Shown: positions 118 through 18,181 of the stretch, one piece after another | How positions within the stretch are numbered: the first letter of the stretch is position 1 | How the letters are laid out: each line of letters opens with the position of its first letter | NCBI GenBank assembly: GCA_050011875.1 | Contig: JBEKIG010000021.1 | Location: forward strand, 1 to 26,085 | Length of the DNA stretch: 26,085 bases | From: Nitrososphaeria archaeon | Lineage (GTDB): Archaea > Thermoproteota > Nitrososphaeria > JACIWG01 | Reading direction: 5' to 3' | The notes under the pieces: model-generated | Seen by the model: only the letters and a program-made list of their open reading frames with translations | Databases searched by the model: none | Told to the model about the DNA's origin: nothing | Made by a program: the position numbers and the translations under genes

Positions 118-300
118 GCAGATGCAAACCAATAATGTCACTGTTGTGTTTTGTTTTATAGTAGGATTCGCAGCGGAGCCTTCAGGATTCTGATCATTGG
201 CTCTAATTCTGAGAAACTAATAAATTAGTCTATACTGTAACTGAATGTTGGGGTGTCAAATTTGGTTACTGAAAAAGTAATGCATTTTCACGGATGCCAG

Positions 301-1545
301 ATGGCAACCACTAATTCCGTGAAACAGCACAAACTGAGGAAGCTCATAGCGTGGCTATCAGACAAAGAGGGAAGGGGAATGGAGTTCGTCTCGCTCTACA
401 TACCTCGGGAGAAATCAATAGATGAGATAGTCGCAATCCTCAAAGAGGAGTCTGATTCTGCTGTCATGAAATCTGAGAGCGTTAGGGAACGCCTTCAAGA
501 CGCCCTCAAGAATATAATCCAGCATCTAAAGCTGCAGAAGGAAATTCCAGAGAATGGGCTCGCGATATTTGCTGGAACTTTCGTCGCGAACGATCCGGAA
601 AGCGAAGTTTTGAACGTCGAAGAGGTCATCCCACCAGAGCCGATTACCGCCTATCTTTACGAGGTCGACGACCATTTTCAGTTAGAGCCGCTAAGGGAAA
701 TGCTGAGAGCCCAAAGAGTTGTGGGGCTTATCGCCATGGATTCAAAGGAGGCTAGCTTCGGGATACTAGATGGTGAAAGACTCGAGTTAATTGAAAATAT
801 CACGTCGGGGATTCCAGGGAAGTCTGGGAAGGGCGGGGAGAGCCAGAGGAGGTTCGAGAGAGAACGCGATAGTGAAATCACGTACTATTTCCACAGGGTT
901 GCGGAGCATGCAACAAAGGCATTTCTCGAGAACCATAAAGTTACGGCGTTGATAGTTGGAGGACCGGGACCAACGAAAGAGGATTTCTCAAAGGGTGATT
1001 ACCTTCATTATGAGCTAAAGAATATGCTTCTGGGCATAGTTGACACGCAATCCGCCGGCAGAGAAGGGGTGAGAGAGGCGCTTGACAGATCATCTGAGAC
1101 ACTGAAGAATATATGTGCACCAGAGGAGAAGAGTACTGTGCAGCGCCTTCTGGCAGATATGGGCAAGCAAGACGGTTTGGCTATTTGCGGCCTAGATTCA
1201 GTGTTGAACGCGCTTAAGAAGGGTATCGCGGAAGTTGTACTAGTGACAGATAGTACAGATATGATTGAGATTGTTGTAATGTGCAAAAGATGCGAACTGT
1301 CAAGGGCGAAGATAGTGGATAAGGCGAAGAAGGTTCAAACTGTACAGGAAATGATATCGAGCCCATGCGAGAAGTGCAACGCGGTTGAATACGAGGTGGA
1401 GGAGAAGGACATAATAGACGTCTTAGAGGATGTGGCTTCACAGACAGACGCAAGGGTTGAGGTGATATCTACAGAGTCGGAAGAAAAAGCAAAGCTCACA
1501 GCTTTGGGAGGCTTTGCCGCTCTCTTGAGGTACAGACCTAAATAA
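301..1545 (+). CDS. Archaeal peptide chain release factor 1 (aRF1/eRF1 family) paralog with degenerate catalytic and decoding motifs
   Basis: SLYIP, IPENGLAIFAG, GKSGKGGESQRRFER, LIVGGPGPTKEDF, CxxC...CxxC minidomain and C-terminal LGGFAALLRY. The ORF track starts at GTG 253, but ATG 301 (MATTNSVKQHKLRKLI) fits normal aRF1 length better. Confidence 0.93.
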   Translation: MATTNSVKQHKLRKLIAWLSDKEGRGMEFVSLYIPREKSIDEIVAILKEESDSAVMKSESVRERLQDALKNIIQHLKLQKEIPENGLAIFAGTFVANDPESEVLNVEEVIPPEPITAYLYEVDDHFQLEPLREMLRAQRVVGLIAMDSKEASFGILDGERLELIENITSGIPGKSGKGGESQRRFERERDSEITYYFHRVAEHATKAFLENHKVTALIVGGPGPTKEDFSKGDYLHYELKNMLLGIVDTQSAGREGVREALDRSSETLKNICAPEEKSTVQRLLADMGKQDGLAICGLDSVLNALKKGIAEVVLVTDSTDMIEIVVMCKRCELSRAKIVDKAKKVQTVQEMISSPCEKCNAVEYEVEEKDIIDVLEDVASQTDARVEVISTESEEKAKLTALGGFAALLRYRPK

Positions 1546-1569
1546 AGTGGAATGAAAATCGCGAGAACC

Positions 1570-1577
1570 TTTTTTTT
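1570..1577 (+). terminator. Possible archaeal oligo-T terminator
   Basis: T8 run about 25 nt after the aRF1-like stop codon. Confidence 0.35.
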
Positions 1578-2194: not shown

Positions 2195-3010
2195 TCAAGG
2201 GATGGAATAGATACAATATTTATAGTAACATTGCATAAGTTTTCCTAAGATCGTCAACTCATGTTTTCCTGATGAAGCTGATTCTGTTATTCCACGCTTT
2301 TTTAGTTCGCTAAGAAATTCTGTTACTCTAACCTGGTCTTCTGTTGTCTTAGCTTGTGCTATGTTGTACGCTTCTTGGCTTGTGATATTGCCTTTACTAA
2401 CTAAAACATCCCATACTGTCCCATACTTTGAATTTGTTACATAGTTTATGCCCTCCATTACTTCCGGAGAAATCTCACCAATCATCGATTTGCCGAATGC
2501 TCGAATGGTTATTACTGCTTGTTCAAGTTTACTTGTTGCATCTTCACTATTCTTCACCTCCTTTACTGTTATCTTGTCTCGCTCGAAAACTACATCCATC
2601 AATTCTAACTCTCCTTCTATTCCAATCAGTTTCTTAATAAAAGCCAAACCTTGTTCTACGTCGGTCTCTTCCAGTTCAAATATGGCAACCTTTCCCTCAA
2701 GTCGTGGGTCATGAGATAACTTGATGTTCAATTCAGAAAGCCCCTTAGCTATCTGATTCTCTAACTTATTCTTATTTTCAGTGCACTCTTTGATCTGTCT
2801 ACGCTTTTCTTCTAGTTTAGTTCTCATTTCGTCAAAGGATTTAGTAATATCATCTCCCGTTATATCTTCCATTACTTTATACCTTTCAATTGATTTCGTT
2901 GCTACTTGATATTTCGCTTCGAGTTCGTCCAATTCTTTTTTATTTGAAGCTATCGCTTCACCCATTTCATAAAATTCTTGAGCCAGTTTACTAATCTCTG
3001 ACAGATACAT
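2195..3010 (-). CDS. Hypothetical protein: N-terminal coiled coil and probable C-terminal winged helix
   Basis: 271-aa ORF with an E/K-rich heptad N-terminus. The C-terminal VWDVLVSKGNIT...FLSELKKRGITE....HELTILGK resembles a wHTH. Confidence 0.6.
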   Translation of the reverse strand: MYLSEISKLAQEFYEMGEAIASNKKELDELEAKYQVATKSIERYKVMEDITGDDITKSFDEMRTKLEEKRRQIKECTENKNKLENQIAKGLSELNIKLSHDPRLEGKVAIFELEETDVEQGLAFIKKLIGIEGELELMDVVFERDKITVKEVKNSEDATSKLEQAVITIRAFGKSMIGEISPEVMEGINYVTNSKYGTVWDVLVSKGNITSQEAYNIAQAKTTEDQVRVTEFLSELKKRGITESASSGKHELTILGKLMQCYYKYCIYSIP

Positions 3011-3974: not shown

Positions 3975-4237
3975 AGCGCAGTTAAAAATTTTATTGTTCT
4001 GGCTACAAGGAAAGGATTTTCATTCAGATAGAGCTTTTGTTAACCTGAATCCCATCAAATTGAGGCTGATTGAGAATTGTATTTTTTGGATTATTCTTGG
4101 CAGCCTATCTACCTGAATACGGTGTGCAATTGAGATGATGCCAAAAGCGGTCGTTCAAAGCGGGTAGAGTAGAATCACGTCTTACCGGCGAAGACCACAC
4201 GCGCAACTTATAAGCAACCAAGCCGACCATCCGTTGA

Positions 4238-4552
4238 ATGACTATCAACACTGCGCGTGCAGTCAGGATTAATATCGGATACATCGGAGCGCACGCTTCG
4301 CTTCTCGTGGCAACGGTAGGATTGCTCTTCTTGCAACGGTACATCTGGCTCCTGAACATTGCCGAGCGAGGCTATGGACCATATCAAAGCGCCTCCTACT
4401 TGATAGGAGTGTCAGCGGTGATTGTCATAATTGACTTTTTCATATTGAGGTCAGCCCTAAAGGGTTCCCGACGCGACAGAATAATATCGGTACTAGCGCC
4501 TGCCGCGTTTCTTGGCATCGCACTTTTTATTCTCGTTGCCAACAACGCATAA
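4238..4552 (+). CDS. Small hypothetical membrane protein (about 3 TM)
   Basis: Three hydrophobic segments. TTATAA box about 25 nt upstream of the ATG. Confidence 0.55.
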   Translation: MTINTARAVRINIGYIGAHASLLVATVGLLFLQRYIWLLNIAERGYGPYQSASYLIGVSAVIVIIDFFILRSALKGSRRDRIISVLAPAAFLGIALFILVANNA

Positions 4553-4716
4553 TTCGTTCTCTACGAATTGGCGATGCTTCTCGCTTAGACTCGATGACCC
4601 AGATGGTTCATACAGTTCGGATATGATTTCGATCTTGGACTGAAAAGTGAAGCAGCACAAATAAAAAAATGAGCGGGCTTCCTAGCGATAACATCTAGTT
4701 CAAGGTTTAATTGCAC

Positions 4717-4815
4717 CTATTCTTTCTTCTTGATCTTTCTGTACGCTAATATTCCACCGACCGTTAGTCCGCTAACGACCGCTGTCCCTAATACTATCTT
4801 TTGCTTGTTGGTCAT
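4717..4815 (-). CDS. 32-aa single-TM microprotein (not in ORF track)
   Basis: MTNKQKIVLGTAVVSGLTVGGILAYRKIKKKE*. GGTGAG Shine-Dalgarno-like motif just upstream, with an AT-rich TTTTAATA box further upstream. Confidence 0.65.
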   Translation of the reverse strand: MTNKQKIVLGTAVVSGLTVGGILAYRKIKKKE

Positions 4816-4910
4816 TCAACTCACCGATTTCCATATATGGGAGCATACAATATTAAAATTTCCCGAATATTTACGGGATATTTTAACGCAATCCTTTTAT
4901 TAAAGCTGGA

Positions 4911-5435
4911 ATGGATTCAACTGGAATGGTCTCAATCTTCGAGCTGGTTATAGACGTCGCCGTTGGCACTGTCGTTACGGTTCTGATTGAAGAGTTCATA
5001 AGCTCCGTTATCAGGCGCGCGGCAAAGATTGCTGGATCAAGCCCCACCATAATTCGTGATATCGGAGCTGCAATGCGAATCATCGCGATTCTCGTGATCC
5101 TCGCAGAAATTCTCTCATTAACTGACATCGCATCGGAGTTCACAGTCCTCACCATATCTGGAATCGGCGCGCTTGCCGTTTCGCTCGCGTTACAGAATAC
5201 TCTCTCCAACATCATCTCGGGCATTCTCCTCTTATTTGACGGAGTGGTCCACCTGAACGACACAGTGGAGTACGGCAACGTTAAAGGAAGGGTCGTGCGC
5301 CTCGCCTTAAGAAACACTTGGATCAAGATGGACTCGGGCAAAATTGCCGTCATCAGCAATTCCACGCTCTACGGTGGTCCACTCATCAATCACTCCGCTA
5401 CAGCCCGCCTATCAAAAAAATATGCAATCGAATAA
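4911..5435 (+). CDS. mscS: Small-conductance mechanosensitive channel family protein (short form)
   Basis: GIGALAVSLALQNTLSNIISGILLL (TM3 motif), D.V....GRV..L.LRNT.I...G....I.NS beta domain. Confidence 0.88.
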   Translation: MDSTGMVSIFELVIDVAVGTVVTVLIEEFISSVIRRAAKIAGSSPTIIRDIGAAMRIIAILVILAEILSLTDIASEFTVLTISGIGALAVSLALQNTLSNIISGILLLFDGVVHLNDTVEYGNVKGRVVRLALRNTWIKMDSGKIAVISNSTLYGGPLINHSATARLSKKYAIE

Positions 5436-5550
5436 AATCAACGCTGTGAACAAGATCCATCTTATTATTTATTTATATGACTACTCATCTCACCTCTTTT
5501 TTTTAACTTAACGATAGAATAGAACGGAGAGGAGGTTTAATACTGAAAGG

Positions 5551-6546
5551 TCAGATGTGGAAAAGGAACGTTAACAGTACATAAGCGGCAAAGAATACTA
5601 ATCCAAAAGTTAGTCCATACCAAGGTATCTTTTTTCTTGAGATGAAGAAGAGCATGAGCAAGGACACTATTGAAGTTGATAAGACGCAGAGATACACATG
5701 AACGTCTACAATCCAAGCGGTTAGAAAAAGCCCGATTGCAGGGTATAATGTTGAGTAGAGGACTTTTTCTCCTACTAGCGAGCCTATGCTTAGGGTGTCT
5801 TTGCCTCTGAATCCCCAGATTAACGCGCTTGCGGTCTCCGGAACCACCGTTGCCGCTGGAATTATTATGATGGATAGTCCCAACAGGCTGGTTCCTAAGC
5901 CTGTGGCAATTTGGTTTACCAACGATACCAGTTGGCTAGCTCCTATGTAGAGTATAATCACCGAGATAACTAGTTGAATGAAACCTCCGATTTCTTTGCT
6001 CGGAATTATCCTGCAGAAATATGGGTGTTCCGCCTCGATGATTACCTCCAACGACCGCTGCCTGTACATTAAGGCAAGATAGACAAGGTAAGCAGCGAGA
6101 AACGTTATGCCGAAAAGGATTCGCACGTACCTTGCCGATATGAAAGATGGAACAAGCGCCACGGGTAGAAGAATGGTGACAAAAATGAACGGGATCGCTA
6201 GGGTCCTGCTGACTTCTAGATAGTTGCGCGCTCGCTTCTTCAGAAAGAACCCGACTAACGCAAAAACGCCAACTAAGCCGTAAGAAAGGCTTGAGGCCAT
6301 GAACGGCTCACCGAATATTGTTCCTACAGCAATTGCAGTTCCTATCGAACCTCCAGGTCCGAGAATCGCGATCAACAGCACGACAAGTTCGGGAAGTGAT
6401 GTGAAAAGCGGAGACAAGATGGCACCTACAAAAGAACCGCCCACATTAAATCGGTACCCGAGAAACTCGATTGAATTGACATATAGCAATGCTGAAATGA
6501 AGACAAGGATAACGCTTAGCAAAAGGAATAGTAGGGATTCTATCAT
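5551..6546 (-). CDS. Sodium:calcium exchanger (CaCA family) membrane protein
   Basis: Two alpha-repeat-like motifs (LFTSLPEL...GTIFGEP and AATVVPET...GSLVGEK), about 10 TM. Start uncertain (6546, 6555 or 6570). Confidence 0.85.
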   Translation of the reverse strand: MIESLLFLLLSVILVFISALLYVNSIEFLGYRFNVGGSFVGAILSPLFTSLPELVVLLIAILGPGGSIGTAIAVGTIFGEPFMASSLSYGLVGVFALVGFFLKKRARNYLEVSRTLAIPFIFVTILLPVALVPSFISARYVRILFGITFLAAYLVYLALMYRQRSLEVIIEAEHPYFCRIIPSKEIGGFIQLVISVIILYIGASQLVSLVNQIATGLGTSLLGLSIIIIPAATVVPETASALIWGFRGKDTLSIGSLVGEKVLYSTLYPAIGLFLTAWIVDVHVYLCVLSTSIVSLLMLFFISRKKIPWYGLTFGLVFFAAYVLLTFLFHI

Positions 6547-6553
6547 CGTTGAC

Positions 6554-7134
6554 ATGATTGACTTTCTCACATATATTATTTCTTGGGGAGGAATACTAGT
6601 AGCTGTGTTATATTTTCTTTGGTATAGTAAAGGTGTAACAAATCCAGAGACCTACGAACTGATTCAAACCGAAATAGAAGAAGTCGAACTGTCACTTGTT
6701 AATGGGCATGAAAATGCAGTTCTTATAGACTATCAAGAGACGAATAACGAGATAAAAAACAGAGGGCAGGTGACTCTTTTAGTAGGCTCGATCATGATCA
6801 CTAGTTCGTTTTTGATTCTTGCTGCCGGATATTTCATTCCTCCCATGTTTCCATATGCTCTTGTTCCAATTCTACTATTCGTATTATGGTTGCTTATCTT
6901 GCATTGGACAACAAAGAAAATAGATCAATATTTATTTCGTCATGTCAAGACTATCGAATTAGCGCTAAGACGGAGGACACTTTACAGATCCGGCCCTCAT
7001 CAATATATTCTTGATAATACTACTGACAATGGAAAGATTGCTTGTTGGCTTACTCTTAGAAGACTTTTCTCGGGTTTATCCTACTGCTTTTGAGTTGTGT
7101 ATGGGTGCTACTGCCTTTAAATATTTTTAAGTGA
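6554..7134 (+). CDS. Hypothetical membrane protein, probably frameshifted near 7068
   Basis: From ATG 6554: TM, helical linker, then 2 TM. The frame stops at 7093, but an alternative frame continues GFILLLLSCVWVLLPLNIFK* (stop 7132-7134), completing a further TM helix. Confidence 0.5.
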
Positions 7135-7192
7135 TCTTACAAGATCAGAAGATATGAAATAATAATAGGTATCTGCACCTAATTAAGGTCAG

Positions 7193-7258
7193 AAACCACC
7201 GGACCAACACCCAATTCTTCTCTGTTCATTATTTACCAGTAGATTAATGCTGAGATGC
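7193..7258 (+). repeat. Dispersed direct repeat, copy A (no tRNA-like tail)
   Basis: aaaCCACCGGACcaacACCcAATT...cattATTTACCAGTAGATTAaTGCTGAgAT aligns with the copies at about 10255 and 11040. Confidence 0.8.
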
Positions 7259-7593
7259 AAGGAGGGCTCAGTTAGCTGCGAAACTATCTAAGGGCAAAAA
7301 GGGGTTAAGTCCTCTCGGCATCCCATGGCAAGCGTACTACACTAAGCTGCTGACTCAGGGCAGGCCGCTAAATCTTGGAAGGAAAGATAACAGAAAGGTT
7401 TCATCTATTTTCCTGCTGGATGAGCTTAGAAAGATCGACGATTTCTTAAGAAAAATTTCAAAAATGCATGATAATACTCCTTTTAAGGCAAATTTGCCAA
7501 ATATTAAATATGTTAAAAAATCATAGATACCTTTTTGTAAAAAGGTTAACTGATCTACTTGTTCAAGAATAGAAGTATTCACTATATGAAAAT

Positions 7594-8544
7594 TCAAATC
7601 TCAGTAGTTTCGGTCTCGGGCTCAAACTTGTCCACCTTGTAATTGCAGAAGTCGCAACTGTAGACGTTACGATAAGTAATCTCTCTAGTTATTTTTTCAT
7701 CTGTCTTGTGAAGTATTTCAACTTGCATGCGTACATGCTTATTTCTACGGAAAGCAAATTGTCTACTACACTTTGGGCACCGCAATTTTGGTATCTCGAC
7801 ATCAATTACAAATAGTAAACCCCCTATGATGGCTAAGACGGTATATAATATAAGAACCCAATCTGAAGGAACAATGTGGGTACTCCAAATTTGAAACATT
7901 GAATAAGCTAAAGGAACAAAAAAGAGAAAACCGCATATACCGAGAGCTATCTTTTCTTTTCTTAGGGAAACGTCTAACTTTCCATAAGTTCTTTTCGTAT
8001 ACCATCTGCCAACTCCAATGAAGCTCTTCTGAAGTTGACTTTCTGGTTCCTCAGGAATCCCTTCTAATTCAAGTTTTTCCTCAAGCGTTCTTTTCCCTTT
8101 TTTTGCAGACATCTGCTCTCTCTCTTTTTGTGTTGCTCTGTCAGAAACTGGGCCTCTTCTAACCCAGACCTCTCTCGTCTGCACTATTTCGTGAGGCTTA
8201 AGATCACTTTCAGGTATTTCTACGACGATAAACCATTTCCCATTTCTCTTGATAAGTTCTGAATCAAAACTTGGTGGAGGATTGCATCTCTGAGCAATTA
8301 TTTGATGCATCTGATCCGCGTTATACGTATTTGGATCGATTCCTACGATTTTCCCGTCTTCGCTTTTGTCCTCTTTGCCGTAAACTATGAATCCTCCTAA
8401 AGTATTAGCGAAAGCGGAGACATCTTTAGCAAATTCATATTTATCGTTATCGGAGTATAGATGAATTTCACGTTTGAAGTCAAGTTTTGTACTTTCCTCT
8501 TGCTTAAGTAAATCATTGAGTATCTTTAGTCTATTATCCTCCAT
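7594..8544 (-). CDS. Schlafen/AlbA_2 domain protein with 2 TM helices and a C-terminal zinc ribbon
   Basis: EESTKLDFKRE, KDVSAFANTLGGFIVYGKED, IVGID, VVEIPES..KPH, VRRG. Two hydrophobic helices, then CPKC...CDFC. Confidence 0.85.
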   Translation of the reverse strand: MEDNRLKILNDLLKQEESTKLDFKREIHLYSDNDKYEFAKDVSAFANTLGGFIVYGKEDKSEDGKIVGIDPNTYNADQMHQIIAQRCNPPPSFDSELIKRNGKWFIVVEIPESDLKPHEIVQTREVWVRRGPVSDRATQKEREQMSAKKGKRTLEEKLELEGIPEEPESQLQKSFIGVGRWYTKRTYGKLDVSLRKEKIALGICGFLFFVPLAYSMFQIWSTHIVPSDWVLILYTVLAIIGGLLFVIDVEIPKLRCPKCSRQFAFRRNKHVRMQVEILHKTDEKITREITYRNVYSCDFCNYKVDKFEPETETTEI

Positions 8545-8569
8545 AAAACAAGAATTAGGCTATTCGTGC

Positions 8570-8704
8570 TTTAAAGATTTAATATTCTCAACAAATGCCG
8601 CTATCAACAAGCGAACTTAATAATCACCACTGTAACCTTCACTGATACCACAGGTATTTTTTTAAAAGATATAGAAAAAGGTAGTGGGGTGTTAACTTTA
8701 TATA
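8570..8704. promoter_or_regulatory. Divergent archaeal TATA boxes for leaderless transcripts
   Basis: CTTTAAA on the minus strand (8570-8576) lies 26 nt before the Schlafen ATG. TTTATATA (8697-8704) lies 25 nt before ATG 8729. Confidence 0.55.
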
Positions 8705-8728
8705 TAATATTAGTATATATCAAAATAT

Positions 8729-9049
8729 ATGCCATTATCAGATTATCTAATTCCAGGTGAAGAAATCAGATTTCAGAGTGGTTCAGCAATAAGTTTTGGT
8801 GGCAAAAATTATCGAATTTTAATTACTAGCAAAAGGCTTTTGCTTTATGCTGAACGCGGATTTTCATTTCTTAAACGTGATGATGTAGTGTCATTCAAAA
8901 TGGATGAACTTCAAGGAATTAAATATAGGGAGGAAGGTATTATTAATAAAAAGGGTATCTTAGAAATTCATGGTAAAACACTTGTTCAGCTATCTGGACG
9001 TGCAGCAGAAACTAAGGCTTTGTATCAGCAATTATTACAATTCCTTTAG
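8729..9049 (+). CDS. Bacterial-type PH (bPH) domain protein
   Basis: LIPGEEI...ILITSKRLLLY...G...DVVSFKMDELQGIKYREEGI....LEI, a typical bPH pattern. Confidence 0.75.
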   Translation: MPLSDYLIPGEEIRFQSGSAISFGGKNYRILITSKRLLLYAERGFSFLKRDDVVSFKMDELQGIKYREEGIINKKGILEIHGKTLVQLSGRAAETKALYQQLLQFL

Positions 9050-9060
9050 GCGTTTTTAAA

Positions 9061-9582
9061 TTGAAATTGGAAGATGCTAGGGCAGAAGTGTTAAATAGAA
9101 TTAGTTTAGCTTGTGGTTTCGAAGTCAAAGAAGAAGATTTATCACCTGGCCTTAGAAAATCTATCACAAGCATTTCGATGACACTTAGACAACTTATAGT
9201 AATTAAACAACTTCTTCTTGTTGAACAAACAAATTACAACCGTTTTAGTTCAAGATTATTAAGATCTGTGACTGGAAAGAAGGATGAAGAGTTAGCTAAC
9301 TATATTATGCAAGTGGATATTTTGCAACGAGATCTTAATGGCAAAATAGATTTAACTGCAAAATTAGTTTGTGAAGAAATAGAAGCTGGATGGGCTTCAC
9401 CAAATTCCCCTCAAAAAACTAATACTTCGAATATATTTATAGAACCTTTGAAATGTTTGAGTTGTGGAGCACCCTTAAACATTCCATCGTTTCCGTCAAG
9501 AATCGCTAAATGCGAACATTGTGGAACAGAATACGCTTTCTCTGAATATTTGGAAAGACTAGGAGCTTCAATTAAATCTTAA
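9061..9582 (+). CDS. Hypothetical helical protein with a C-terminal zinc ribbon
   Basis: TTG start 11 nt after the bPH gene. LKCLSCGAPL...KCEHCGTEY. Confidence 0.7.
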   Translation: MKLEDARAEVLNRISLACGFEVKEEDLSPGLRKSITSISMTLRQLIVIKQLLLVEQTNYNRFSSRLLRSVTGKKDEELANYIMQVDILQRDLNGKIDLTAKLVCEEIEAGWASPNSPQKTNTSNIFIEPLKCLSCGAPLNIPSFPSRIAKCEHCGTEYAFSEYLERLGASIKS

Positions 9583-9721
9583 TTCATTATTTGTGTAAGT
9601 ATCTGATACCCGATTATGCTGAATGAGCTTATCAAACAAAAAAAGTCGGTCTATGCTTAAACCAATAGATCGATTATAAGCCAAGTCGAAGTGCCAATGT
9701 AGTAAGTACATCCATGGGCAT

Positions 9722-10195
9722 CTGGGCGACTTCGCTACCATGTCCGCCTCTACCGACAACGTAAGGTATTCGATGAAGCCCGCTTCATTCGACGTCCCTT
9801 GGCTGTTCAGACTTGGGGCATCGCTGGGCTTGGCCAACACAGTCGAAGGAATTGCGCTCACTCTCTCCGGGATTGCGTTTCTTGGCTTGGGAGGAAATGC
9901 CGGTAAGATCTACATATTTGGCTTTGCCTATCTGGTTCTGGCAGGGGTGTTCAACCTCTTAATAGTGCGCGAGCGTCATCATTTCTGGGAGTCACGACCG
10001 AGCAATCTTCTAGTCATCACAGTAGCCGCTGAGATTCTGATCGTTTGCGCGGTCTCACTCGTAGGCTTTCTTGAGCTCTCACCCATTGGGGTTCTTCCAT
10101 TGGTTGTGTTGCTCGCCTTTTCCGCAGTTGCTTCGTTCGCCGTAAATAATCGGCTCAAGGTGTTTTTGCTGCGTAGATTCAGCGGTGGCCGATAA
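9722..10195 (+). pseudogene. C-terminal fragment of a plasma-membrane-type (P3A) H+-ATPase
   Basis: LGDFATMSASTDNVRYS.KP, VRERHHFWESRPS..L and VNNRLKV match the terminal TM region. No upstream catalytic domains. Confidence 0.8.
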
Positions 10196-10254
10196 GTCCA
10201 AGATATGACTTAGTTATGGCGTGAAATCTTTCTTCTTGACCGATATTGTATCCA

Positions 10255-10333
10255 ATCCCACCGAACTTGAACCTAATTGTCCTCCTAATAATTTACCAGT
10301 AGATTAGTGCTGAAATCCCAACCCCCCGCACCA
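10255..10333 (+). repeat. Dispersed direct repeat, copy B, ending in a tRNA-Leu 3'-end (att-like) sequence
   Basis: ATTTACCAGTAGATTAGTGCTG followed by AAATCCCAACCCCCCGCACCA. The typical archaeal tRNA-Leu 3' end is GGTTCAAATCCCACCCCCCGCACCA. Confidence 0.8.
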
Positions 10334-10577
10334 AGATTAAGCCTGAATATCGCTACGTTCATTACTCTTTGAGCAGATTTGAACTTCTTCCAATATAGCT
10401 CTAGAAAGTTCTAAATGTTAGAGCCCATTATTGGATAGGAGCTCTAATATGTCATACGCAAGATGGTCACGAAAAGGTTCGAGCTCCTTTCTTGCCCATC
10501 CGGCCTTCGAATTACTAGGATGACCCGAATAAGGAGTGATCGAAACGTATAATAACCGGTTCGAATTGTTACTCAGT

Positions 10578-10922
10578 ATGACTTCAAAACTCCTCAGCGT
10601 GGCGGTAATGGTCTCCGACGCGAAGAAATCGGCGAAGTGGTACGCCGAGAAGCTCGGCTTCGAAACCTCAACCGAGGATGACCACTGGGTGACCGCCTGG
10701 CCCAAGGGAGCAGGCTGGAAGCTGCACTTGTGCCAAGGAAAACTCGAACCTGGTAATACGGGAATAGGATTCTACAGCGACGACGTGGAGAAGACTGTGA
10801 TCGACCTCAAGAAGAAAGGAGTGAAATTCGCCCGGGATTACACCAAGACGGACTGGGGCGAGAATGCTCAGCTCGAGGACCCTGACGGCAACATCATCTG
10901 GATTAAGAAGGGTAGTCCATAG
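10578..10922 (+). CDS. VOC family (glyoxalase/bleomycin-resistance) protein
   Basis: VAVMVSDAKKSAKWYAEKLGF, F.SDDVE.....LKKKGVKF, WG..A...DPDGN. TATAATAA about 23 nt before ATG 10578. Confidence 0.9.
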   Translation: MTSKLLSVAVMVSDAKKSAKWYAEKLGFETSTEDDHWVTAWPKGAGWKLHLCQGKLEPGNTGIGFYSDDVEKTVIDLKKKGVKFARDYTKTDWGENAQLEDPDGNIIWIKKGSP

Positions 10923-11039
10923 AGTGTGTAAGAGGTAATCTCTCTCACAATCTACCATAACGAAAATGTTTGTTCGTCTTGTTAACGAGAAGAATTGACT
11001 CTTGCTCTGATGCCATCTCAAGCATCAAAAAGGCTTTGA

Positions 11040-11119
11040 TCCCCAACGGACTCGAACGCCGTTTTCTTCTTTGGCCATTATTTACCAGCAGAATAAGGTG
11101 CGAATCCACCCCCGCACTA
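11040..11119 (+). repeat. Dispersed direct repeat, copy C, ending in a degenerate tRNA-Leu 3' end
   Basis: CCAACGGACTCGAAC...CATTATTTACCAGCAGAATAAGGTGCGAATCCACCCCCGCACTA. Confidence 0.75.
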
Positions 11120-11314
11120 TAATTTATTTTCATCATAATACATTACGTTCAACTCTTTTCTTAGTAAAGTTTGATAATATCTTTCCATCTCATTACGTAT
11201 CTGGACTTCCCTTCTAACTGCAGCACTATCGATTTCCAACCTTATATTAAGAATCTTAGATGGCAACATTCCACCATATAGAAAAAGCCAATCCTTTATA
11301 AAAAATACTGTCAA
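11117..11314 (-). CDS. Small hypothetical protein (possibly from internal MLPSKIL)
   Basis: Helical-looking 50-65 aa ORF whose stop codon abuts repeat copy C. Confidence 0.35.
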   Translation of the reverse strand: MTVFFIKDWLFLYGGMLPSKILNIRLEIDSAAVRREVQIRNEMERYYQTLLRKELNVMYYDENKL

Positions 11315-14142: not shown

Positions 14143-14399
14143 GCCATCTCCTAATTGTCAATACCATCTTTTATCTTTTAAAATGAAGAATGCTCCTCTG
14201 CAGAAATACTTGGGATTAGATCGCTGATTTTGTATTCGAACTCCTTATGAAAAAATCCGATGCTGAAGAAGCCACAGGATATGAGGCTATGGTTTACCTT
14301 TCGACAGCAGCAGTTGGTCCATAAATGTAAAATGTTTGTAGTTTCTGCCGTTGACCAAAAAGTAAAGAAGGGCACAAAGTGATCGGACAAACAGATTGC

Positions 14400-14977
14400 T
14401 TAGTGGTTTTGCCAAAGAAACTGCTGACTCCTGTTGCCGCGACGTATGCATCCATTTCTCCCTGTCGTACAATAGAACTGCTGTAAACAACGCCCTCAAG
14501 ATGTTTCTCTACGGGAAGAGATTCGCCAGTTAATGCAGACTGATCGACCAAGAGATATTCACCATCAATCAATTTAGCATCAGCTGGAACGATATCCCCC
14601 AAACGGATTCGAATGACATCATCTGGTACAAGTTCCCTAGCAGGAATTCCAGTCCATTTGCCGTCACGTAATACTTTCGCCTTGAGTGCTAACCTCTCTT
14701 TCAACAACTCAATTGCATTTTCAGCCTTGTTTTCTTCCCAAAATCTTATCGATGCATTTACCATTAACAGTGCAAAAATGACACCGAAGTCTTCCCAATG
14801 TCGAATTAAAAGCGAAAGGACAGCTGCTGCCTCAATCATCCAAGGAATAGGGCCCCAAAAATTCATAAGGAACTTTGATATAGCGCTGGCTTTTTTTTCG
14901 GCAATCTCATTCGGACCAAACTTTTGAAGGCGTTCTGTCACTTCAGAAGAAGAGAGACCGACCTTATTTGAAATCAA
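14400..14977 (-). pseudogene. N-terminal fragment of a P3A H+-ATPase, truncated before the phosphorylation domain
   Basis: GLSS.E...RL..FGPNE, FWGPIPWMIE, LVPDD...LGDIVPAD, DQSALTGESLPV, TGVSSFFGKT. Homology stops at about 14400 and there is no DKTGT motif. Confidence 0.85.
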
Positions 14978-16807: not shown

Positions 16808-18181
16808 TTGAAGAAAACAAAGATCATATGCACTCTGGGTCCCGCTAGCTCTTCAAAGCCGATTATTGAAAAAATGTTCCAAGCTGGCATGAACGGCGTA
16901 AGGATAAACACCGCTTACGGAAATCTCACTCAATATCAGTCAATTATAGAAGCGGTGAGGGAAATTGCGGATATCCCAATAATAATTGACATCAAAGGCC
17001 CAGAAATCAGAATCAAGACCTCTCAACGAAAGGTCTTCAGCAAAGGAGACGTTTTGGAAGTAGGCTTCGACGGAGAAGAAGTCCATTTCAATCACGATTT
17101 CTATGACAAAATGAAGGTTGATGACGAGGTATACATCGACAATGGAAAAATTAGAACACGAGTAGTTGAAAAGAAAGACCGAAAACTTCGCCTTCTGACC
17201 TTGGACAGCGGTGCCATAGAAGATGGAAAAGGAGTTAACATTCCCAATAAGCAGCTTTCAGTTCCAACCTTCACCGAGAAGGACTTAGAGATTATAAGGT
17301 TTGCAAAAAAACATGACGTCGAATACATTGCACTTTCATTCACAAGAAATGCAGAAGACGTGAAAAACTTGTCTCAGACCAATAGTTTTGAGGGCGGAAT
17401 AATCGCCAAGATTGAGAACACTGAGGGTGTTCAAAACGTCGAAGAGATTTTAGACGCCGCTAGTGGATTAATGGTTGCAAGGGGCGACCTGGGGGTTGAA
17501 ATCGAACCTGAAAGAGTGCCTCTGATTCAGAAATCATTCATCAAATTAAGCAATCAGAAGGGTAAACTGGTTGTCACCGCAACAGAGATGCTTGAATCGA
17601 TGATTCATCAACCCAATCCAACCAGGGCTGAAGTCAGCGACGTAGCAAACGCCATACTAGACGGGTCTGACGCTGTTATGCTTTCTGGCGAAACAGCGGT
17701 TGGTCAGTATCCCGTTGAATCCGTTGAGATGATGACTCGGATAGCGAATGAAGCAGAGAAAGCTGTCAAGAGCAACGTTGAAGATACTCCGTTCATCAAC
17801 ATTTCTGATACGGTGAGCAAGGCAATCCAGAGAATATGTCAGAGCATGCCCGTTCACAAAGTTATCCCTTTGACGCGGTCTGGCTACACTGCCCGAATGA
17901 TAGCTCGCTTCAAAATTGCTCAGCCGATAATTGCTGTCACTCCTGAAATTAAAGTTAAAAAACAACTTGAACTCACATTCGGCGTGTACCCAGTTCTGAT
18001 AAACTACCGCGAAGAAAAAGACCGAATATCAGCAGTTGCAAACCAACTCTATGAAATGCGTCTGGTTGATGATGAAGAAACTGTCTTGTTCACCGCGGCT
18101 ATGAGAACCACTATGGCACACGCTAGCAACTCTATAGAGATACATAGAATTAAGGAATTGAGAAAATTTGCGTCTTCCTGA
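16808..18181 (+). CDS. pyk: Pyruvate kinase
   Basis: KTKIICTLGPAS, DIKGPEIR, IAKIE, MVARGDLGVE, ATEMLESMI..P.PTRAEVSDVANAILDGSDAVMLSGETA. Confidence 0.97.
   Translation: MKKTKIICTLGPASSSKPIIEKMFQAGMNGVRINTAYGNLTQYQSIIEAVREIADIPIIIDIKGPEIRIKTSQRKVFSKGDVLEVGFDGEEVHFNHDFYDKMKVDDEVYIDNGKIRTRVVEKKDRKLRLLTLDSGAIEDGKGVNIPNKQLSVPTFTEKDLEIIRFAKKHDVEYIALSFTRNAEDVKNLSQTNSFEGGIIAKIENTEGVQNVEEILDAASGLMVARGDLGVEIEPERVPLIQKSFIKLSNQKGKLVVTATEMLESMIHQPNPTRAEVSDVANAILDGSDAVMLSGETAVGQYPVESVEMMTRIANEAEKAVKSNVEDTPFINISDTVSKAIQRICQSMPVHKVIPLTRSGYTARMIARFKIAQPIIAVTPEIKVKKQLELTFGVYPVLINYREEKDRISAVANQLYEMRLVDDEETVLFTAAMRTTMAHASNSIEIHRIKELRKFASS

Follow-up and report, generated by a model that had tools for sequence, protein, structure and literature searches.

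The window analysed here, 26,085 nucleotides of contig JBEKIG010000021.1 from a Nitrososphaeria archaeon, carries a paralog of the archaeal class-1 release factor aRF1 in which the GGQ tripeptide of these factors reads GGE. It is an accessory gene, probably transferred horizontally and not coding for the cell's general terminator, and we favour, at a rough probability of 40%, the reading that its product is a codon-relaxed release or rescue factor. The reading rests on comparisons of sequences and predicted structures, which also bear on several alternatives.

The encoded protein scores 385.1 bits against the NCBIfam model aRF1_eRF1 (TIGR03676), above the cut-off of 234.7, with the canonical copy of the source genome at 475.6 bits. 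It also matches Pfam eRF1_1, eRF1_2 and eRF1_3, giving the three-domain eRF1 architecture. The score stays below the cut-off of the Pelota model TIGR00111 (68.4 bits; cut-off 177.65) and of NF052289, the Rv2629/Balon family (32.2 bits; cut-off 320), where canonical aRF1 scores alike (31.6 bits). For an AlphaFold2 model built from a 60-row alignment (mean pLDDT 82.4), the top Foldseek match was aRF1 4af1 (E 1.9e-38, TM 0.67/0.70), followed by eRF1 structures (1dt9, TM 0.69/0.74); TM scores were 0.34-0.45 for Balon entries and 0.26-0.37 for Pelota structures. Family score, domains and fold thus agree with the preliminary description of the gene as a full-length, intact aRF1 paralog.

The intact open reading frame (ORF), which ends at 1545, encodes the motifs GRGMEF, DSAVMKS (VMKS at 463-474), YEVDDHF, GKGGESQRRF, CKRC...CEKC and GGFAALLRY. 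SAVMKS, YEVDDHF, GME, the zinc (Zn) minidomain and GGFAALLRY are all present, as first described, and three hallmarks of class-1 release factors, the GGQ tripeptide, the NIKS loop and YxCxxxF, have no exact match in the protein. The codons GGC GGG GAG at 832-840 are in frame with this ORF, whose translation at the site reads ...GKSGKGGESQRRFE.... The GAG codon, including base 838, is real and not an assembly slip: two peat-metagenome contigs, X1 (528-917) and X2 (738-912), from public runs of two different studies, match it without differences, bearing in mind that assembled contigs, as opposed to raw reads, hide rare variants and that one run may be the window's own source.

Apart from the paralog, the source genome (G000; 2.64 Mb, 97% complete) does carry a canonical aRF1, located on contig C10, with GRGTEL, TASNIKS, YRCDDHF and GGQ and 44% identity to the paralog, as well as a Pelota gene on contig C15. 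Canonical aRF1, paralog and a Pelota-like match occur together in all five other carriers examined, two of which are complete chromosomes. Contig C10 has the lowest GC content among the large contigs (0.369 vs 0.408 genome-wide) and is an outlier on one tetranucleotide axis (z = -2.15). In G042, a complete Bathyarchaeia chromosome, the canonical aRF1 lies as two adjacent pieces 14 nt apart (query residues 5-105 and 107-418; 1038695-1039952 on C1), and a separate 130-residue open frame at 3042637-3043005 matches the C domain only.

The paralog clade comprises 144 distinct sequences and 47 genome loci (species-genome scan). A large protein collection lists 120 proteins at 80-100% identity to the paralog, and a library of 50%-identity representatives reduces the clade to fragments and a single full-length entry, followed among the full-length matches by canonical aRF1s (at most 50%). 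Going by the submitters' titles, most of the 47 loci come from peat, palsa and soil metagenome-assembled genomes (MAGs) labelled Bathyarchaeia or Bathyarchaeota, with a few labelled Nitrososphaeria or Conexivisphaerales and four labelled as bacteria, probably through binning errors; four MAGs hold two paralog loci each. When 117 rows were placed in a quick LG+G4 tree, the 42 paralogs among them grouped as one clade (SH-aLRT 99, stem 0.42) outside the canonical clade of Bathyarchaeia, and the tree does not fix its place among the canonical aRF1s. Carriage is sparse: among 40 relatives of the source genome only the same-genus genome G001 has the paralog, and of 301 evenly sampled Bathyarchaeia species genomes nine matched at 51% identity or more, all further matches staying at or below 42%. 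No description of the clade was found in the full-text literature, which did not extend to subscription journals and supplements, and nothing was found under 'baeRF1' either.

We compared 144 paralogs with 74 canonical aRF1s over the 49 columns that show at least 90% conservation within the canonical set, mapping human eRF1 residues from an alignment to solved eRF1; paralog residues are numbered from position 301 of the window, so that numbers in the full 427-residue protein are higher by 13. Thirty-four columns are kept in the paralogs, covering the equivalents of human E55, K63, Y125 and F131, the GG pair, S181, R184, PG, the four Zn cysteines and L409-R410. Three are switched and fixed (L29F, C122V, G396K), and the remaining 12 are relaxed (T27, N55, I56, S58, T61, R62, V65, L76, Q180, G256, E276, Y296). 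The equivalent of human S64 is also retained in the window paralog. The earlier statement that all stop-codon-reading motifs are altered therefore goes too far, given the retained equivalents of E55, K63, S64, Y125 and F131.

The three loops have changed in different ways. The Cys of YxCxxxF (human C127 equivalent) is Val in 98% of paralogs, with Y120 and F126 kept. The Thr of the GT loop (human T32, position 27), present in 96% of canonical sequences, is replaced by Met in just 77% of paralogs. In the NIKS loop, K and S are kept, the Asn gives way to Val or Ala (Val in 50%) and the Ile to Met or other residues (Met in 53%), with entropies of 2.0 bits at V55 and 2.3 bits at M56. Nonsynonymous to synonymous changes, counted by parsimony on a 42-taxon tree, stand at 21:2, 18:3 and 13:2 for positions 55, 56 and 27, against a neutral ratio that we roughly estimate at 3:1. 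This hints at more than neutral drift, with the caution that the counts are small and that parsimony ignores recombination, which can inflate them.

At the third position of the GG tripeptide, the 144 sequences show Q in 54, S in 53, E in 16, W in 10, M in 8, A in 2 and L in 1. GGE is consequently not a mark of the clade, because the residue takes seven identities and basal members still have GGQ. The preliminary description had counted GGQ in close homologs among the findings that would speak against it; this is partly the case, yet the gene is no error. Codon 180 is CAG or CAA in basal members, TCN in a large clade, and CAG, TCG, GAG, GCG, ATG or TTG in the crown group, the Trp being known from protein sequences only. 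Single steps join these codons as CAG-GAG-GCG-TCG-TTG-ATG, with a branch TCG-TGG, and no stop or proline codon is passed; an amber (TAG) intermediate, which we considered, is not needed. The residue is never K, R, G, P, V or T, though these are equally reachable, and beta-branched residues are absent. A set without P, G, K, R and beta-branched residues fits a side chain packed in a pocket.

On the 42-taxon tree, codon 180 has eight nonsynonymous and eight synonymous changes, near the gene-wide ratio of 0.95, while G178, G179, Q182, R183 and R184 jointly have 0 nonsynonymous and 46 synonymous changes. Site 180 is of average variability over the whole clade (rank 102-123 of 414). Within the crown group (79 sequences, at least 84% identity) it has changed at least 24 times against a median of 2 (rank 6 of 414), a figure that short branches and recombination may inflate. 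Across the gene, 42 intact coding sequences gave a median dN/dS, the ratio of nonsynonymous to synonymous substitution rates, of 0.18 (5th-95th percentile 0.13-0.29; pairwise NG86, 686 of 861 pairs with dS 0.05-1.5). The proposed clade of shared substitutions under purifying selection thus stands for the N-domain substitutions and fails for GGE.

Several observations indicate that the gene moves between genomes. Homology between the window and 16 other loci begins at 195-197 in 13 and stops at 1573 in seven, and in all 47 rows compared with locus L076 (46 other loci and the window) it reached no further than the gene plus roughly 215 nt of flank at most. Genome pairs whose canonical aRF1s share 43-72% identity, with saturated dS, have paralogs at 73-91% identity and dS of 0.16-1.1; one pair shows the reverse, with canonical aRF1s at 86% and paralogs at just 73%. 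The paralog DNA of the window is 92% identical to that of the carrier genomes G041 and G045. The Pelota of the source genome is 63% identical to that of a family relative and 27-28% to those of G041 and G045, and the NTP-transferase and ThiF of the window contig are 66% and 54% identical to family relatives but 51% and 40% to Bathyarchaeia. Because the paralog is so close to its G041/G045 counterparts while these other genes stay with family relatives, it was likely transferred recently between archaeal classes. A mis-binned contig is a less likely explanation, since the window's composition is typical of the source genome, its NTP-transferase and ThiF have their nearer counterparts in family relatives, and only the paralog and a pyruvate kinase gene reach about 90% identity to G041. 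This pyruvate kinase gene, at 16808-18181 of the window, shows 89% protein and 90% DNA identity to a G041 copy about 10 kb from the G041 paralog, and 66% to a second G041 copy; it looks like a second transferred gene.

On the favoured reading, the canonical aRF1 on the other contig would be the cell's general terminator, and the paralog would move into the A site of the ribosome and set its GG loop in the peptidyl-transferase centre. Such a placement is most likely because the three-domain body, the Zn knuckle, GGxAAxLRY, the invariant GG loop and its basic flanks are kept. Selection would have been lifted or reversed on the stop-reading residues, namely the equivalents of N61 and I62 of NIKS, T32 of the GT loop and C127, and would also have been lifted from the Gln side chain; the lost constraint on these four equivalents argues against one defined stop-codon specificity. 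The factor would hydrolyse, or at least engage, peptidyl-tRNA on stalled ribosomes, relying on the backbone of GG instead of the side chain of Gln, and, expressed from its own promoter, would be carried through archaea of peat and soil as a one-gene cassette. Gln mutants of bacterial release factors keep substantial activity. Published work ascribes glycine-only torsion angles to the two Gly and a packing role to the Gln side chain, and describes the GG loop as lost in Pelota and Balon. As the loop is invariant in the paralogs while non-hydrolysing Pelota and Balon have lost it, it most likely still works in the peptidyl-transferase centre, and a rescue-type release is to be favoured over a Balon-like hibernation.

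Other points weigh against this reading. To our knowledge, every characterised hydrolytic protein of the release-factor type (RF1/2, eRF1, ArfB/ICT1, PrfH, Vms1) keeps the Gln, and Gln mutants of eRF1 are impaired. The Gln may be dispensable, because aRF1s of DPANN archaea with NIKS and YxCxxxF read GGW, but a second, GGQ-bearing aRF1 may stand beside the GGW copy. The retained equivalents of E55, K63, Y125 and F131 suggest that some codon reading may persist in the paralog. The only aRF1 paralog with reported biochemistry is that of Methanosarcina barkeri. A Tyr found in 66 of the 74 canonical aRF1s is Ser (position 251) in 130 of the 144 paralogs, the GLA and GGxAAxLRY motifs being kept; mapped by position only, this is probably the Tyr (A. 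pernix Y257) reported by one study to be required for the binding of aEF1A, which makes the delivery by aEF1A proposed in the preliminary description uncertain.

Foremost among the alternatives, though we consider it unlikely, is a hibernation or parking factor, as the preliminary description had it, that fills the A site, the decoding centre and also the peptidyl-transferase centre of idle ribosomes without catalysis and has no need of the Gln or the codon-reading tips. Unconstrained Gln and NIKS-loop tips on a conserved scaffold would suit this role, Balon provides a precedent within the aeRF1 superfamily, and the fold listing holds an idle-ribosome entry titled '...CCDC124-80S-eERF1 ribosome complex', that is, one with eRF1. 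The recurrence of ion-transport genes near the paralog in some loci points the same way, but the gene neighbourhood as a whole is unconserved. The analogy with Balon drawn in the preliminary description is anatomically weak: GG and its basic flanks, part of a loop that Balon and Pelota lost, are invariant, the NF052289 score is a tenth of its cut-off, and fold similarity to Balon (TM 0.34-0.45) lies well below that to aRF1/eRF1 (0.67-0.70). Moreover, the equivalents of E55, K63 and Y125 are kept although a vacant A site presents no codon.

Next in standing, and likewise improbable in our view, is a genuine release factor whose codon range is altered or narrowed, or which is tuned to special contexts, and which works beside the omnipotent aRF1. 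Its score above the aRF1 equivalog cut-off, the retained GG and equivalents of K63, S64, E55, Y125 and F131, and the GGQ of basal members are all in keeping with termination, and in ciliates, eRF1s whose NIKS and YxCxxxF differ from the usual form recognise fewer stop codons. Such a factor would be expected to have a fixed decoding loop, yet few positions of the protein vary as much as 55 and 56, and carriage by just nine of the 301 sampled Bathyarchaeia genomes also speaks against it. A link to stop-codon reassignment was rejected, as all three stop codons terminate long open frames in the source genome (TAA 661, TAG 461 and TGA 447 of 1569). A pyrrolysine link was dropped as well: PylS was above cut-off in none of five carrier genomes (G000, G001, G041, G042, G045), with M. 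acetivorans as a positive control.

A bolder reading, which we regard as quite doubtful, takes the clade as mobile aRF1 derivatives whose scaffold is frozen while the decoding and peptidyl-transferase tips diversify. These 'alternative release factor' cassettes would rescue or protect ribosomes on which stress, inhibitors or conflict have blocked normal termination and, together with the GGW factors of DPANN archaea, would show the Gln to be dispensable on archaeal ribosomes.

Still less probable is a role in conflict or resistance, in which a mobile factor directed at the ribosome would diversify its tips in an arms race, for example with inhibitors of termination or of the peptidyl-transferase centre, or with viral interference. 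Horizontal transfer decoupled from host phylogeny, the single-gene cassette and the two copies in some MAGs would agree with this, as would the excess of nonsynonymous changes at positions 55, 56 and 27 and the crown-group turnover at site 180; against it, these parsimony counts are small and open to inflation by recombination, and site 180 is average across the whole clade. Nor was there a link to defence islands, viruses or plasmids. A viral or plasmid origin was rejected, as a phage collection gave no match and the 16 matching plasmid records are haloarchaeal aRF1s that have canonical motifs and less than 35% identity. Nearly identical 358-residue copies, with GTE, ANIKS, YRCAAEF and GGQ and without the Zn minidomain, occur on plasmids of different genera, namely Haloferax mediterranei pHM100 (L097:4001-5077) and a Halomicrobium urmianum plasmid (L098:4001-5077), and are another case of mobile release-factor genes.

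A decaying duplicate without function, suggested by the loss of canonical catalytic and decoding residues and by frameshifts or truncations in five further loci (L072, L073, L077, L078, L079), is very improbable and largely refuted by the selection data, given a dN/dS of 0.18 rather than near 1 over 42 intact copies from different genomes, invariant motifs that change only synonymously, the conserved start codon, promoter-like element and clade-specific extension, and the origin of the frameshifted copies in MFD- and Spart-labelled MAGs, the former being, we assume, long-read assemblies in which indel errors are common.

The gene itself most likely spans 262-1545 and encodes 427 residues, with a TTG start and a TAA stop. 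The ATG at 301, first taken as the start, is probably wrong: among 42 aligned copies (41 loci and the window), the codon at 301 is a non-start (ATA, CTG, ACG, TTA, CTA or ATT) in 11, a start-type codon aligns with the TTG at 262 in 41, and the 13 intervening codons (262-300) are conserved as the protein segment (M)V[ST]EK[VI]xHF[HQY][GA]CQ, deepest branches included. This extension has no counterpart in the canonical aRF1 of the source genome, and the N-terminal segment, residues 1-17, is disordered in the AlphaFold2 model (pLDDT < 50). An upstream ORF or structured leader at 245-300 was considered and dropped, as the stretch is the conserved protein N-terminus. The distance from the TATA-like element, a putative promoter, to the proposed start would imply a leaderless or short-leader mRNA, and the T-run behind the stop codon is likely a terminator (Table 1). 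Two contigs of a single peat metatranscriptome run, covering 327-649, stem from a relative about 94% alike and are a weak sign of expression, given possible DNA carry-over.

Table 1. Features of the paralog gene and its cassette, in window coordinates.
Feature	Position	Strand	Basis or remark
Shared single-gene cassette (putative promoter, ORF, likely terminator)	196..1573	+	82-96% identity to copies with unrelated flanks
TATA-like element AAACTAATAAATTAG, putative promoter	214..228	+	Conserved upstream, about 35 nt before the proposed start (upstream alignment)
aRF1-paralog ORF, corrected	262..1545	+	Start conservation; TIGR03676; Pfam eRF1_1/eRF1_2/eRF1_3
Clade-specific N-terminal extension (M)VTEKVMHFHGCQ	262..300	+	Conserved His, His/Tyr and Cys positions, also in deep-branching copies
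GME replacing the GT(E/S) loop	376..384	+	Human T32 position relaxed
SAVMKS replacing TASNIKS	457..474	+	Shorter by one residue; variable at the N61/I62 equivalents, with K and S kept
YEVDDHF replacing YxCxxxF	658..678	+	Cys fixed as Val; Tyr and Phe kept
GGE replacing GGQ	832..840	+	GG invariant; third residue any of Q, S, E, W, M, A, L
Zn-knuckle minidomain CxxC...CxxC, domain C	1282..1377	+	C328, C331, C356 and C359 kept in canonical and paralog sets
C-terminal GGFAALLRY motif	1507..1533	+	L409 and R410 invariant in 144/144 paralogs; Y411 in 142/144
T-run following the stop codon at the shared block's 3' edge; likely terminator	1570..1577	+	Sequence; contigs X1, X2 and X10 diverge at 1563-1573

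No conserved neighbour or operon partner was found, the commonest neighbour family occurring in eight of 48 loci. P-type ATPases, CLC channels and Na+/H+ exchangers recur near the paralog in some loci, and one subclade adjoins genes of the IF-2B family, a tRNA-intron endonuclease and a methyltransferase. Close to the paralog in the window lie a lipocalin-like gene and genes for a zinc-ribbon protein, an MscS fragment and a Na/Ca exchanger. Of the stress-gene neighbourhood proposed earlier, the recurrence of ion transporters stands, but the neighbourhood is not conserved and no Pfam match to CsbD was found in the eight small ORFs examined (4105-11314). A GTPBP1-like EF1A paralog on contig C16 of the source genome was rejected as a partner GTPase, being present in seven of nine family relatives with or without the paralog; the source genome's copy is intact, and a copy in G001 (C17, 7670-9244) has 12 in-frame stop codons and is either a pseudogene or an assembly error.

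Further features of the window concern its other genes. A 227-residue N-terminal part of a P-type cation ATPase lies at 14294-14977 (-), and a 151-residue ORF about 4 kb off on the other strand (9740-10195, +) has a weak, below-cut-off match to the P-type ATPase C-terminal domain; together with a 174-residue piece of an MscS channel at 4911-5435 (+), the ATPase fragments look like broken or rearranged genes. Sequences of 40-90 nt at about 7157-7256 and 10251-10334 recur at more than 20 places on many G001 contigs with 81-93% identity and look like a dispersed small repeat resembling miniature inverted-repeat transposable elements. A Schlafen/AlbA_2 domain gene is found at 7594-8544 (-), and a 271-residue coiled-coil-like protein with a weak, below-threshold match to MLKL_N at 2195-3010 (-).

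GGQ is treated as universal, and the clade amounts to a natural experiment on it: more than 140 proteins under selection in which GG and its flanks are fixed, seven residues occur in place of the Gln, and the stop-codon loop drifts. Should peptide release persist, the Gln side chain would be unneeded on archaeal ribosomes and the paralog would be a rescue-type release factor distinct from Pelota. Should there be no release, it would be a candidate for an archaeal hibernation factor of the A site whose construction differs from that of Balon. A gap would be filled in both cases, as ribosome rescue and hibernation are little known in archaea. That the gene has spread by transfer between archaea abundant in peat and soil suggests that it brings an ecological benefit.

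Among known systems, ArfB/ICT1 and PrfH carry out codon-independent release on stalled ribosomes, the job proposed here for the paralog. The likeness is functional only, as they belong to an unrelated fold family of the bacterial release-factor type and all keep GGQ. Pelota/Dom34 shares the aeRF1 superfamily with the paralog and is an A-site factor that acts without a stop codon; according to published descriptions it differs in lacking the GGQ minidomain and in having another N domain. Balon/Rv2629 is a further member of the superfamily; Balon is described as binding the A site with EF-Tu and as having, in place of NIKS and GGQ loops, a lasso loop and an HP motif, besides a bL27 trap, whereas the paralog keeps the GG loop and the K-S of NIKS.

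Replacement of the Gln is not confined to the paralog clade. Among aRF1 homologs labelled Aenigmatarchaeota, Nanoarchaeota and Micrarchaeota (DPANN archaea), 113 of 119 read GGW with NIKS and YxCxxxF kept (P0136, P0172, P0175 and P0154, for example), and the Trp codon was TGG in six of six loci (L099-L104); other cluster representatives among the aRF1 homologs read GGF or GGE. The GGW proteins look like their hosts' ordinary terminator. They resemble the paralog in having lost the Gln, and differ from it in keeping both decoding motifs and in having one fixed replacement. No paper joining 'GGW', release factor and archaea was found in the full-text literature. A 2008 survey describes NIKS, YxCxxxF and GGQ as universal in e/aRF1, the exceptions being NIK variants of ciliate eRF1, some variability of the S in NIKS, and a small subgroup of archaea with YxTxxxF (PMC2613156). 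Many canonical aRF1s of 500-1450 residues (P0121-P0130 and others) match in two or three stretches that break at query residues 118/119 and 179-181, the YxCxxxF and GGQ sites, consistent with inserted inteins.

A second aRF1 gene beside a working copy is also known from Methanosarcina, whose aRF1-2 the paralog resembles in this respect. One study reports two aRF1 copies in 4.3% of sampled archaeal genomes (n = 81) and attributes the Methanosarcina copy to lineage-specific duplication (PMC12626013); compared by description, the paralog clade differs in its spread by transfer and its altered motifs. The closest relative in both sequence and fold is canonical aRF1 (TIGR03676; 4af1, 3agk/3vmf), with which the paralog shares the three domains, the GG loop with its basic flanks, the Zn knuckle and GGxAAxLRY. 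It departs from canonical aRF1 in the unconserved Gln, a shorter and variable NIKS loop, the change of C127 to Val, the variable T32, the conserved M-domain Tyr changed to Ser, G396 changed to Lys and the 13-residue N-terminal extension, and it is an accessory, horizontally mobile gene of few genomes.

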